From the NCBI GenBank assembly GCA_038121585.1, contig JAYONY010000001.1, forward strand, positions 201,903-265,902: a stretch of DNA of 64,000 nucleotides, in the 5' to 3' direction. The position numbers were made by a program, and so were the translations under genes. Positions 3,957-37,403 of this stretch are shown piece after piece (the first letter of the stretch is position 1; every line of letters begins with the position of its first letter). The notes beneath the pieces were generated by a model. That model was not told the origin of the DNA. It ran no database searches and saw only the letters and a list, made by a program, of their open reading frames with translations. Source of the stretch: an archaeon. Lineage in GTDB: Archaea; Nanobdellota; Nanobdellia; Pacearchaeales; GW2011-AR1.

Positions 3957-4853
3957 ATGGAAGTTACATTTCTTGGAACTGCAAGCCACACTCCGACCGC
4001 AAAGCGGAATCACACCGGCATTCTAGTGGAACTCCCGGGTGAGATGATTTTAGTTGATTGTGGCGAGGGCATGCAGCGCCAGTTTAAAATGGCGAAGAAG
4101 AATGCGTGTAAACTTACGAAACTATGTATTACGCATTGGCATGGTGATCATACGCTCGGTATTCCCGGCCTCATGCAGAGTTTAGCGATGGCAGAGTACT
4201 CGAAAGAATTACATATTTTTGGTCCGCGGGGCACGAAGAAAAAGTTTGCATTACTTGAGCAATTATACGGTCGTTTCAAGATTAACCATGTGTTGCATGA
4301 AATTACCAGTCCTGAGAAAGTAATTGTTGATGAGGACGAGTGGATGATTGAAGCAAGTAGTATGCAACACGGTGTTGCGGCGTACGCGTACGCAATTAGT
4401 AGTAAAGAAAAGCGCCGTATTGACAAGGAAAAACTTGCTAAGTACAAGATTGGTAATTCGCCAAAGCTCAAAGACTTGCAAGCAGGTAAGGATATTGAAA
4501 TTGATGGTACAACGTATACTGCAAAAGACATGACCTACATGCAAGAAGGTAAGAAAGTAGCGATTGTCATGGATACTGCACCGAATCAAGAAGCGATTGA
4601 CATAGCTCAAAATGCTGATGTGCTCGTGATTGAATCAACCTACCATACAAATGAAGAACAATTAGCGCGTGAGCGCGATCATTTAACAACGAAGGATGCA
4701 GCAACCATTGCGAAGAAAGCAAAGGTGAAGCAGATGGCAATAACGCATTTATCACATCGCTACGCTGCACGACCAAAAGAAATTCTGGATGAGGCGCGTA
4801 AAGTGTTTAAGAATACGATGTTACCACGAGACCTTGATAGCCTTACTGTTTAA
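3957..4853 (+). CDS. rnz: Ribonuclease Z (tRNA 3' endonuclease)
   Basis: 298 aa. Metallo-beta-lactamase motif ITHWHGDH. N-terminus FLGTASHTPTAKRNHT is typical of RNase Z. Confidence 0.85.
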   Translation: MEVTFLGTASHTPTAKRNHTGILVELPGEMILVDCGEGMQRQFKMAKKNACKLTKLCITHWHGDHTLGIPGLMQSLAMAEYSKELHIFGPRGTKKKFALLEQLYGRFKINHVLHEITSPEKVIVDEDEWMIEASSMQHGVAAYAYAISSKEKRRIDKEKLAKYKIGNSPKLKDLQAGKDIEIDGTTYTAKDMTYMQEGKKVAIVMDTAPNQEAIDIAQNADVLVIESTYHTNEEQLARERDHLTTKDAATIAKKAKVKQMAITHLSHRYAARPKEILDEARKVFKNTMLPRDLDSLTV

Positions 4854-21998: not shown

Positions 21999-22011
21999 TG
22001 GCCCCGCGCAG
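21999..22011 (-). repeat. Distal copy of the tRNA-Val 3' end (CTGCGCGGGGCCA)
   Basis: Exact 13-mer tggccccgcgcag on the plus strand. Degenerate T-loop-like extension. Flanked by hairpins AAACATTC/GAATGTTT and TGCTC/GAGCA. Confidence 0.8.
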
Positions 22012-22069
22012 TTGAAAACATTCACTAACTAGAATGTTTGATGCTCGAGGGAGCACGAATGTCAATGAG

Positions 22070-22082
22070 TGGCCCCGCGCAG
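22070..22082 (-). repeat. Proximal copy of the tRNA-Val 3' end (CTGCGCGGGGCCA)
   Basis: Exact 13-mer located 70 nt from the genuine tRNA 3' end. Adjacent hairpin AACTTTA/TAAAGTT. Confidence 0.8.
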
Positions 22083-22139
22083 TCGAGAACTTTATGTTAA
22101 ATTAAAGTTAGAGACCAGCTGGGACAGAGGCATAGCCGA

Positions 22140-22210
22140 TGGCCCCGCGCAGAATCGAACTGCGGACTCCTCCACGTCAAGGAGATGGTTTACCACTAGC
22201 CTACGGGGCC
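22140..22210 (-). tRNA. tRNA-Val (anticodon GAC)
   Basis: Hand-folded on the minus strand. Acceptor GGCCCCG/CGGGGCC. Anticodon loop TTGACGT. T arm CGCAG-TTCGATT-CTGCG. One mismatch in the D stem. Confidence 0.8.
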
Positions 22211-22422: not shown

Positions 22423-23295
22423 ATGCGACAACGAAACGAGGACATGGACCCCCTGTACAAGAAAGAACTCGAACAATTTACTTCTTATTTATCATTTGAG
22501 GAAGAATCTAAACGCGGTAAAATACTTCGTGATGAAACCCTCCCCGTCAACGTTCGTAAAAAGGCTGGTGCTGAACTTGTAGAAGCCAATTTACGCTTGG
22601 TACCTTTTATTGCGAGACGATATGAAAATCGAGGAGTTGCAAAAGACGATTTAATTGGGGAAGGAAATGAAGGACTAGTATATGCAACTACGAAATACGA
22701 TGGGAGGACAAAATTTGGTACGTACGCTGGCCGTTGGGTTAAACAACGCATAGGCCGTGCAATCATTGAAGGGACTGGCCCAATCCATATTCCTGAAACA
22801 ACCCTCCTCCTAGCTAAAAAATTTACCGAAGAAGATATCAAAAAACCAATTGAAGTGCTTGCAAAAGAGTATGATGTAAAACCGGGGAGAATAGCATGTG
22901 CTCTTGATGCATACGCCGTTTTACAAAGAAAAACTCATTCACTAACACGCCAAGATACTGATGGATCCAAAGGCTACAACGCTGATTTTGAAATCCCTTC
23001 TAGAGAAATTGATACGCTTGATGAATCAATTGAGAGTAAGCGATTACTCAAAAAATTGCCTAAGCGAGAAAGAAAAGTGATTGAAATGTATTATGGATTT
23101 ACACCTATGCCCCCTGTTCAAAGAAGACCTCACAGAAGAAACTGTAAAACAGGTCAATTACTCGAAGAACATTCTGTTCGGCGTGAAAAAGCAACCCTTG
23201 AAAATATTGGAAAAAAAGTAGGAATTAGCAGAGAATGGGTCCGTAGAATCACTATTGATGTACCACCAACCCTTCTAGAGTCGCTTAACGAATAA
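22423..23295 (+). CDS. Bacterial-type sigma-70 family factor homologue
   Basis: 290 aa. Region 2: [59 protein letters not shown]..IHIP (compare RpoD [58 protein letters not shown]..IRIP). Region 4: [30 protein letters not shown]. Confidence 0.85.
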   Translation: [290 protein letters not shown]

Positions 23296-24791: not shown

Positions 24792-24863
24792 GCCTCCATA
24801 GCTCAGTGGCAGAGCATTAGTTTTGTAAACTAAGGGTCGGGGGTTCGAATCCCTCTGGGGGCT
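24792..24863 (+). tRNA. tRNA-Thr (anticodon TGT)
   Basis: Hand-folded. Acceptor GCCTCCA/TGGGGGC. D arm GCTC-AGTGGCA-GAGC. Anticodon arm TTAGT-TTTGTAA-ACTAA. T arm GGGGG-TTCGAAT-CCCTC. Confidence 0.9.
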
Positions 24864-24939
24864 CTCATCTTTATGATGCGGGAGCATCATAGAGAAACCA
24901 GAGGTACTAAAATTTCTAATTTTTCAACCTCTGGGGGCT
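24864..24939 (+). repeat. tRNA-sized trailer module 1, ending in a copy of the tRNA-Thr 3' end
   Basis: 76 nt. Hairpin ATGATGC-GGGA-GCATCAT. Stem CCAGAGGT/ACCTCTGG encloses hairpin AAAATT-TCT-AATTTT. Ends CCTCTGGGGGCT, identical to 24852-24863. Confidence 0.7.
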
Positions 24940-25013
24940 TGTTCTATAGTGTTGCGTAGGCAACACTCAGCAACCTGAGGTACACGACGTTAGTCGTTCA
25001 ACCTCTGGGAGCT
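24940..25013 (+). repeat. tRNA-sized trailer module 2, ending in a near-copy of the tRNA-Thr 3' end
   Basis: 74 nt. Hairpin AGTGTTGC-GTAG-GCAACACT. Stem CCTGAGGT/ACCTCTGG (one mismatch) encloses hairpin CGAC-GTTA-GTCG. Ends CCTCTGGGAGCT. Confidence 0.7.
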
Positions 25014-25014
25014 C

Positions 25015-25020
25015 TTTTTT
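25015..25020 (+). terminator. T6 run after the second trailer module
   Basis: TTTTTT immediately follows module 2. No comparable T-run follows the tRNA itself or module 1. Confidence 0.45.
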
Positions 25021-25092
25021 ATGATGCAAGAATAGCACGTGATAAAAATACTAAAAAGATGAATATATAAACAATCTTTAGCTTTTGAGTGT

Positions 25093-25992
25093 ATGGAAGG
25101 AGAAAGTGCTAAGTCCCCGACTGAACTCATGCATGATTCTGAACGTGAAGAGATAATACGTTTTTTGCAAGATAATATTGGATGGGTGAATTATTATGTC
25201 TTAGTGCTTATTGGAGAATTTGATAAGGTTCGTGCTAGAAAACCTACTCAGGGAGTTACAATTCAAGGTGAGCCTTTGAAAGTACGACGTAGGGATACGG
25301 GCGAGGAGGAAGTGTTTGGGTATATTGACCTAACCTCTTCTATGACACTTACCCCTGTTGCCCAGTCTGAATTTCCACAGTTTAAGAAGTGGAGCCTTTC
25401 TGAGAGTGAGGGCGAGGCATGGATGATTTTCAATTATGAAGTGTTTCCCCGAATTAGCATTCCTGACCAAACAATTCAATTAGTGAATCAATACAAGCAA
25501 TATGGCCTTTCGGGTGATGGGTGTTCTTGGATTGTCATTACTAAAACCCCGAATATGCAAAAACCGTTCAAAGATCATGACATTACCCTTATTGAATTTG
25601 AAACACTGCAAAAGGCTATTGCTGAAATGAAGAAAAAAACCGATGAAAACCTCAAAAAACAACGGGAAAAATCACAAAACACGTCTGAAACTCCAATAAA
25701 GAAACAAGGTTCTAAACATTCCCAGATAACTAATCCTGGAGGAAAAAAGGCAAGTAAGAAATTAGCTCAGGCAGTACAAAAAGTGACTAAGAAAAAAGCC
25801 TCTAAAAAAACAAGTGTGAAAAAACAGAAGAGCCCTGCAAGTAAAAAGATAGTGCAAAAAGGTACAAAAGAAAAAACACCTGCTAAGAAGACTACTCTCA
25901 AAAAGAAAAGTGAAATGGCAAAAGCAAAAAAGAAAGAAAACACTGCTGATTCGCTCAAAGCGTGGGCCCTAAAGCTAACAAGTAAAAAATAA
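25093..25992 (+). CDS. Hypothetical protein with a histone H1-like Lys-rich C-terminal tail
   Basis: 299 aa. Globular N-terminal 190 aa, then KKASKKLAQAVQKVTKKKASKKTSVKKQKSPASKK.. low-complexity tail. Confidence 0.55.
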   Translation: MEGESAKSPTELMHDSEREEIIRFLQDNIGWVNYYVLVLIGEFDKVRARKPTQGVTIQGEPLKVRRRDTGEEEVFGYIDLTSSMTLTPVAQSEFPQFKKWSLSESEGEAWMIFNYEVFPRISIPDQTIQLVNQYKQYGLSGDGCSWIVITKTPNMQKPFKDHDITLIEFETLQKAIAEMKKKTDENLKKQREKSQNTSETPIKKQGSKHSQITNPGGKKASKKLAQAVQKVTKKKASKKTSVKKQKSPASKKIVQKGTKEKTPAKKTTLKKKSEMAKAKKKENTADSLKAWALKLTSKK

Positions 25993-37029: not shown

Positions 37030-37225
37030 ATTATATAGTCCCTATAACAGCTATATAAGCATTACGATAGTAAAAAAAATGCAAGAAAATCGGAGTACAT
37101 AATCTACCCCCTCCTTAAGCAGTTAGACTTCTGAGGAGAATTTAGAAATAAACTATCAGGTGATTATTTACTCAAATAGCCCTGACAATCGGAGATTGCT
37201 GCACTATCAGTGCACCTCTAATAGT

Positions 37226-37330
37226 GCCCTGCCAGGATTGGTCGAACTTCGAAGAAGTTTGAGCCCCAGAGAATCATAGATTCTCTGAGCGTTCGAATCC
37301 TGCATTAGCAGGGCTGTGAACGAAAGTGAG
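37226..37330 (-). repeat. Trailer module downstream of tRNA-Gln, ending in a copy of its 3' end
   Basis: The minus strand starts AGCCCTG (same as the tRNA 5' end). It carries hairpins CCTGC-TAAT-GCAGG, CAGAGAAT/ATTCTCTG and AACTTC/GAAGTT. It ends AATCCTGGCAGGGC (14-mer 37226-37239 is identical to 37333-37346). Confidence 0.65.
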
Positions 37331-37403
37331 TAGCCCTGCCAGGATTCGAACCTGGGTCTGCGGGCCCAAAACCCGCCATACTTGACCACTATACTACAGG
37401 GCT
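37331..37403 (-). tRNA. tRNA-Gln (anticodon TTG)
   Basis: Hand-folded on the minus strand. Acceptor AGCCCTG/CAGGGCT. Anticodon arm GCGGG-TTTTGGG-CCCGC. T arm CCAGG-TTCGAAT-CCTGG. Confidence 0.85.

Follow-up and report, generated by a model that had tools for sequence, protein, structure and literature searches.

The stretch of DNA analysed here, 64,000 nt long and referred to below as the window, belongs to a DPANN-type archaeon whose genome amounts to 0.97 Mb in five contigs and is 82% complete; the nearest relatives of its proteins that bear a name are labelled Nanoarchaeota/Pacearchaeota. The window carries a gene for tRNA-Thr(UGU) that starts 27 nt after the end of the gene for ribosomal protein S3Ae, and directly behind the tRNA gene stand two short units, here called cassettes, each of which closes with a copy of the tRNA's own last 12 nt (Table 1). 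ARAGORN and Rfam agree on the tRNA gene and its anticodon (TGT), with the 3' boundary at 24863/4. The last 12 nt, which we call the tail, comprise the 3' strand of the T stem (positions 62-65), the 3' strand of the acceptor stem, and the discriminator. The corresponding 12-mer (CCTCTGGGRGCT) was found at the tail and at both tail copies, where chance would supply about 0.16 matches in the window. Between these end repeats each unit holds 62-64 nt of hairpin sequence and no open reading frame. Just 3' of the cassettes, at 25093-25992 on the plus strand, is a gene whose product, 299 aa long, has a lysine-rich tail and matches nothing in Pfam.

The initial annotation of this locus described two modules of 76 and 74 nt behind tRNA-Thr with a copy of the tRNA end at the close of each, and every hairpin that it named (A1, A2, C1, C2, and both long-range stems) was located. 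In cassette 1 the long-range stem joins CCAGAGGT (24898-24905), here called the anti-tail, to ACCTCTGG (24927-24934); the equivalent stem is present in cassette 2 as well, where it contains a T.T mismatch. Hairpin C of cassette 1 is bordered by an AC/TCA junction that is conserved across genera. Besides this mismatch, two details of the earlier description had to be corrected. The T6 run at 25015-25020 was thought to be the sole T run, but a T5 run lies inside cassette 1, and a T5 run can terminate archaeal transcription too. In addition, a third, truncated unit begins after cassette 2; because CTTTTTTATGATGC repeats the start of cassette 1, the array amounts to about 2.2 units. Both cassettes are much more stably folded than shuffled sequences, cassette 1 at -32.0 kcal/mol (z -6.6) and cassette 2 at -32.2 kcal/mol (z -4.8), and the antisense strands fold nearly as well (-26.7 and -31.3 kcal/mol). 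The two units are mutually only 63-68% alike, and thus are not the product of a recent tandem duplication.

Table 1. Positions of tRNA genes, cassettes, and cassette parts. Positions without a prefix are those of the window.
Feature	Position	Strand	Basis or remark
tRNA-Thr(UGU) gene, without encoded CCA	24792-24863	+	ARAGORN; Rfam RF00005, 70.8 bits
Tail, last 12 nt of tRNA-Thr, CCTCTGGGGGCT	24852-24863	+	
Cassette 1, 76 nt, type Ia	24864-24939	+	model R1, 65.8 bits
Hairpin A, cassette 1	24868-24879 / 24884-24895	+	12-bp stem, one mismatch, GGGA loop; inverted repeat and fold
Anti-tail 1, CCAGAGGT	24898-24905	+	inverted repeat; covariation
Hairpin C, cassette 1, AAAATT-TCT-AATTTT	24909-24923	+	fold
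T5 run within cassette 1	24920-24924	+	possible partial archaeal terminator
Tail copy 1	24928-24939	+	exact 12-nt repeat of tRNA-Thr end
Cassette 2, 74 nt, type Ia	24940-25013	+	model R1, 56.9 bits
Hairpin A, cassette 2	24948-24955 / 24960-24967	+	inverted repeat; fold
Anti-tail 2, CCTGAGGT	24974-24981	+	pairs with 25001-25008; one T.T mismatch
Hairpin C, cassette 2	24985-24996	+	fold
Tail copy 2, CCTCTGGGAGCT	25002-25013	+	one change relative to tRNA-Thr tail
Truncated third unit, start CTTTTTTATGATGC	25014-25027	+	direct repeat of cassette 1 start; includes T6 run 25015-25020
tRNA-Val(GAC)	22140-22210	-	followed by two 70-71-nt cassettes, 22070-22139 and 21999-22069
tRNA-Gln(UUG)	37330-37403	-	about 154 nt of cassette sequence behind it (region 37176-37403)
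Mirror-image cassettes	C1:22331-22420, C2:305044-305153, C2:317927-317994		tRNA-Trp, tRNA-Lys(CUU), tRNA-Ser(GCU)
Second family of about 70 nt	C1:350895-350963, C1:104970-105037, C2:323172-323240, C3:44924-44993, five more; L474:920-990		

The arrangement is not peculiar to tRNA-Thr and belongs to a genome-wide set of several cassette families. A census of every tRNA that ARAGORN predicts in the whole genome, introns allowed, found one or two copies of the tRNA's own 3' end behind 21 of the 43 genes, in 28 units of 66-154 nt. Random control sites had such a copy (at most one mismatch, at most 250 nt downstream) in 16 of 2000 cases (0.8%), and no copy was found at any of the 43 tRNAs when a 5' or internal tRNA word replaced the 3' end. 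The length of the tail copy varies with the cassette, being 12 nt for the Thr type and as much as 25 nt for others. Elsewhere in the window, both cassettes behind tRNA-Val(GAC) end in CTGCGCGGGGCCA and carry an anti-tail, and the cassette sequence behind tRNA-Gln(UUG) contains a 14-nt copy of the tRNA end together with a second, more decayed copy. Decayed cassette copies exist in the genome. T runs lie between tRNA and cassette at Arg(UCG) and Val(UAC), and their positions relative to the cassettes are inconsistent among loci. Mirror-image cassettes exist as well: the first 13-25 nt of tRNA-Trp, tRNA-Lys(CUU), and tRNA-Ser(GCU) are copied 66-110 nt upstream, with hairpins and a partial inverted copy between the 5'-end copies and the genes.

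The cassettes fall into several structurally distinct families whose only common feature is the tail copy. Type Ia (70-76 nt) includes both Thr(UGU) units, two units at Thr(CGU), and those at Thr(GGU), Lys(UUU), Ala(GGC), Gln(CUG), and Pro(GGG); its layout is hairpin A, anti-tail, GGYAC, hairpin C, UCARCC, and tail, and it is precisely positions 62-73 of the tRNA that are copied. Other types, 90-113 nt long, copy up to 25 nt with the T loop included, and their anti-tail is located at the 5' start in some and is absent in others. The right ends of all families are T-loop-like (TTCAACC, GTTGAACCAATCC, GGAGTTC, and GTGGACC). Cassettes of the Thr type are 50-69% alike, and this type therefore shows no trace of recent jumps. 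Such cassettes have no match in Rfam and no description of them was found in the literature searched, in agreement with the earlier impression that the family is undescribed.

The covariation-like pattern that the initial annotation saw in two modules proved to be genuine covariation on a common architecture once nine type Ia units from seven different tRNAs were aligned. In the anti-tail:tail helix 88.9% of the cells are paired, compared with 68% in shuffles, and none of 500 shuffles reaches the observed values. Both sides have changed in 9 of the 11 pairs, the signal is lost on sliding the partner, and a bubble of 2-3 nt recurs at tail positions 8-10. Counted from the alignment, the helix has eight G.U cells and no A.C cells, which hints at a strand-specific constraint; the equivalent count from minimum-energy folds is biased by the folding algorithm and was left out. 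Taken as whole sequences, cassettes fold equally well in sense and antisense overall, and type Ia units mostly fold better in sense.

The relation between cassette bodies and cassette ends is clearest where related bodies occur behind different tRNAs. The cassettes of tRNA-Ser(CGA) and tRNA-Lys(CUU) are identical at 58 of 69 positions (84%), with a central stretch of about 93% identity as judged by eye, and each of them opens with a fragment, in inverted orientation, of the T arm of the tRNA that it follows and terminates in 22-25 nt of that tRNA. Similarly, the Lys(UUU) unit and a Thr(CGU) unit have hairpin C in common (22 of 24 positions) and differ in tail and anti-tail. One body family thus stands behind different tRNAs, and its end copies, both direct and inverted, are those of the target and hence target-specific. 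Target-matched ends are difficult to square with an element whose att site is fixed, and they point to a target that was duplicated or templated at insertion.

The distribution of type Ia among relatives was followed with a covariance model, R1, built from the nine units. In the source genome R1 finds nine sites, all abutting tRNA tails; these are its nine building units, and it finds no further sites elsewhere in that genome. It matches 7 of 121 genera of the same family, with one or two copies each as against nine in the source genome. Among 400 good genomes of the phylum there were four weak matches, none near a tRNA, which are probably false. Loose motif scans of viral, genome, and metagenome collections returned mostly chance matches; filtering these with R1 left none in 80 viral loci and two more type Ia units on metagenome contigs. 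Both of the latter follow tRNAs that bear introns, and one of these tRNAs is a tRNA-Thr(UGU). At the tRNA-Thr loci of other related genera, end copies occur at 2 of 15, one of these being a 5'-end copy. A genome of another genus, G016, has end copies at 12 or more of the 16 tRNA loci examined; most of its units form a separate AT-rich family, 148-167 nt long, in which no anti-tail is clear, and mirror-image versions with tRNA 5'-end copies are found there too. Such bursts in some genomes and absence in most is the pattern of mobile families. Judged by the initial annotation's own criterion for refutation, the patchiness of the family among relatives argues against a conserved processing device, and its interpretation of the two modules is in sum partly supported. 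At the level of strains, no filled and empty sites were seen; three independent Logan assemblies are identical, and the S3Ae protein of the nearest relative is only 71% identical to that of the source genome.

One locus points the other way. An intron-bearing tRNA-Glu(CUC) is followed by one type Ia unit with the same tail copy in four genera, and the downstream flank appears similar by eye in two of the four. Hairpins A and C of these units differ in sequence and are kept as hairpins, with an AC/UCA junction that is conserved. That genomes so small keep the unit, with compensatory changes, suggests some selection on the fold, and that selection could serve either the host or the element's own propagation.

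Taken together, the cassettes look like an undescribed kind of miniature insertion element and not like something that tRNA production requires. We give a probability of about one half to the reading that they are non-autonomous insertion elements aimed at the T loop and 3' end of tRNA genes. Small (about 60-150 bp), non-coding, and strongly palindromic cassettes would be inserted as DNA at this place, and each insertion would leave the tRNA intact and would place, beyond the cassette, a second copy of the tRNA sequence that lies 3' of the insertion point. With successive insertions cassettes would stack while older ones decay, as in the array behind tRNA-Thr, and one family could land behind many different tRNAs because its right end resembles the universally conserved T loop. 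The anti-tail, paired with the spare tail, may form a folded mimic of the tRNA-end duplex that is used for insertion, in the manner of CTX phage or integron attC sites; alternatively it may be kept, or re-templated through quasi-palindrome correction, because it would sequester the spare tail from the true acceptor stem when transcription reads through. The enzyme would be a tyrosine recombinase like that of the integrase islands at tRNA-Asp, which is the only candidate seen.

Insertion is favoured by the scale of the phenomenon, the existence of families, the target-matched ends, the mirror-image versions, the patchiness, and the decay of copies, and further by T runs that precede cassettes, the lack of an overall strand bias in folding, the 12-nt core and short anti-tail shared with the tRNA-Asp islands, and the presence of RNase Z. 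Several points count against it: no enzyme is tied to the cassettes, neither a filled/empty polymorphism nor a free or viral copy was found in the collections searched, the divergence within the Thr type speaks for no recent jump, and the making of an inverted, target-matched copy has no explanation. In addition, the retention behind tRNA-Glu(CUC) and the excess of G.U over A.C cells hint at selection on a transcript.

We put forward more tentatively, as a possibility that we hold to be rather less than even, that the cassettes constitute a new class of self-retargeting non-autonomous mobile elements of ultra-small archaea, the ends of which are templated on each target tRNA. Such an element would find its target by the conserved T loop or by the tRNA-like fold of tRNA genes, would bear one direct and one inverted copy of the end of the tRNA at which it resides, and so could colonise any tRNA gene and leave it unbroken. 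The mechanism might be fold-back and template switching or a structure-specific cut-and-fill reaction, and is one that has not yet been described.

A parallel to an anti-tail used for insertion is found among folded single-strand recombination sites, such as the attP(+) hairpin of CTX phage that mimics dif and the attC sites of integrons. The geometry of type Ia would fit such a site: an imperfect hairpin with a central bubble (tail positions 8-10) would rebuild a duplex identical to the chromosomal target, and the type Ia layout agrees exactly with the expected integrated form, namely target, body, inverted arm, loop, and target. Unlike these, the arms of the cassette stem are much shorter than a Xer or IntI site, and some families have no anti-tail; we know of no recombinase activity on folded hairpins at tRNA ends. 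Cassettes also resemble MITEs and REPINs in being small, non-coding, hairpin-forming, multi-copy, and patchy among genomes, but they differ in having neither fixed terminal inverted repeats nor a target duplication of fixed length (12-25 nt), in a target that is strictly a tRNA end, in ends that match the target, and in that no transposase partner was found.

Insertion competes foremost with the proposal that the cassettes are trailer RNAs that function for the host, which we regard as doubtful. They would be co-transcribed with the tRNA and would form a minihelix with a stem of about 12 bp, its 3' strand being the tRNA tail, that mimics the acceptor/T arm. The minihelix might have a part in 3' processing, in termination, or in protection; alternatively, RNase Z, the CCA-adding enzyme, or a nuclease directed at tRNAs might use it as a substrate or be decoyed by it. 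The strong anti-tail:tail covariation, the eight G.U cells set against no A.C cell, the better sense folding of most type Ia units, and the tRNA-Glu(CUC) cassette, kept in four genera of very small genomes with hairpins A and C rebuilt around a conserved AC/UCA junction, speak for such a role. There is also a precedent in Escherichia coli, where the trailer repeats of tyrT-tyrV are co-transcribed and processed and are the source of rtT RNA and tpr. We confirmed the layout of that locus, in which 178-bp tandem repeats each end in the last 19 nt of tRNA-Tyr; as in the present case, tandem units stand directly behind a tRNA and close with a copy of its 3' end. The E. coli repeats, however, are confined to one locus and are 95% identical, whereas the cassettes occupy 21 loci, are 50-69% alike in the Thr type, have an anti-tail helix, and show no match to the RtT family in Rfam. 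A host function is moreover difficult to align with cassettes that are missing from half of the tRNAs in this genome and from most related genomes, that come in several unrelated architectures, some with no anti-tail, and that exist in 5'-end versions and as decayed copies. T runs stand before or within some cassettes, and no overall strand bias is seen in folding. RNase Z is encoded in the same window, at 3960-4847, and no replacement route of tRNA 3' processing is therefore needed.

It is improbable that the cassettes are passive scars, in which the attL and attR arms remain after the interior of an integrase-borne island or virus at the tRNA 3' end has been deleted, as the initial annotation had also considered. 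Direct repeats of tRNA 3' ends are left by tyrosine-integrase elements, and non-autonomous att-flanked elements (CIMEs) accrete in tandem (PMC5704250). The cassettes share with such elements an insert bounded by a copy of the tRNA 3' end, regeneration of the tRNA, and arrays at a single tRNA, and the tRNA 3' part is identical on both sides of the insert, as in att repeats. Real islands exist in the source genome, which encodes a XerA-like recombinase and three larger integrases; the three integrases sit in a tandem array of islands at tRNA-Asp, away from the cassettes, and the islands repeat exactly the last 12 nt of that tRNA. The tRNA-Asp 12-mer has four distal copies (C2:122893-161474), and the 5-7 nt directly before each one are complementary to part of it. 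The first island has ends that are inverted repeats of each other over 15 nt (GGGCGTTGAAATTTC / GAAAAATTTCAACGCCC). Identity blocks of cassettes sometimes extend a few bases beyond the tRNA end, as att sites do, and in a small sample extra integrases tend to occur in cassette-rich genomes and not in cassette-poor ones. Scars nevertheless fit poorly. Random deletions would not yield size classes of 70-76, 90-113, and 148-167 nt, nor internal motifs conserved across tRNAs and genera, nor the 84%-identical body that stands behind two different tRNAs with different end copies. Each of 21 tRNAs in a 1-Mb genome would need the independent gain of an island and its equally shaped loss. Cassettes measure only 60-150 bp, contain no genes, and occur at half of all tRNAs, unlike integrase elements and CIMEs; unlike island remnants, they have no integrase or cargo between their repeats; and unlike elements with a fixed att site, near-identical bodies carry target-matched ends and many include an inverted copy of the target. 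To our knowledge, a double-stranded DNA circle as small as a cassette is not a plausible substrate for an integrase.

Equally improbable is an origin in local replication errors, with slippage or template switching at the T-arm palindrome (of the tandem-inversion-duplication type) and no mobile element. Such errors would account for the direct-inverted-direct order of tail, anti-tail, and tail and for the 2.2-unit tandem layout behind tRNA-Thr, and the T-loop sequence TTCGAA is itself palindromic. The cassette bodies, however, do not resemble the remainder of their tRNA (p = 0.8 for each of the Thr units), related bodies are common to different tRNAs and genera and occur at unlinked tRNAs, and the two Thr units have diverged from each other.

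The remaining candidates were rejected. Cassettes resemble archaeal BHB introns in adding structured sequence in or beside tRNA genes, but a strict hBHBh' scan, which looks for two 3-nt bulges with a 4-bp helix between them and recovers anticodon-loop introns, found nothing at the cassettes or at tRNA-Thr(UGU). Decayed whole-tRNA copies were discounted, as local alignment against shuffles gave p = 0.8 and 0.78 for the Thr units, with no similarity of unit bodies to their tRNA in either orientation. Loss of RNase Z, which might force another mode of 3' processing, is contradicted by the gene in the window. No HUH (Y1) transposase of the IS200/IS605 type was found as a mover, and retro-insertion was dismissed with no reverse transcriptase in either of two cassette-rich genomes, the source genome and G016. 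MITEs proper are excluded by ends that are not inverted repeats of each other, by a duplication of 12-25 nt, and by the same lack of a Y1 transposase and a reverse transcriptase. An anti-tail acting as primer-binding site for mature tRNA was set aside as well, since by eye it matches the genomic trailer and not CCA. As to known RNA families, Rfam gave only tRNA matches, both at gathering score in the window and around eight cassette loci at E<=1.

Should the cassettes be insertion elements, as we favour, they represent a way to colonise the most conserved genes of a cell without harm and suggest a way of fitting the ends of an element to each new target; they would then bear on tRNA genes as hot spots of mobile DNA and on the acquisition of introns and fragments by archaeal tRNAs. 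If they are functional, they would form an unrecognised layer of tRNA transcript handling in minimal-genome organisms. Under either reading they pose a practical issue for annotation: in some DPANN genomes, repeats and fragments of tRNA ends follow about half of the tRNA genes.

Some further features of this genome were observed beside the cassettes. A second family of about 70 nt (Table 1) has an invariant core, GTCC-CA...GAGGAAC, and two covarying stems, with double changes in 11 of 18 pairs. Its members begin 0-1 nt after a tRNA tail or tail copy, have no Rfam match, and in one case form the start of a 98-nt intron in tRNA-Thr(CGU); judged by appearance, the internal loops may be K-turns. 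At least ten tRNA genes, for example those at C2:14917-15086, C1:39270-39451, and C2:259623-259781, carry unusually long introns (46-107 nt) at position 37/38, most of them with textbook BHB motifs. Finally, the window encodes a 290-aa protein (22423-23295, plus strand) that exceeds the Pfam cut-offs for sigma-70 region 2 (44.9 bits) and for region 4 (35.5 bits), an unexpected match in an archaeal genome.
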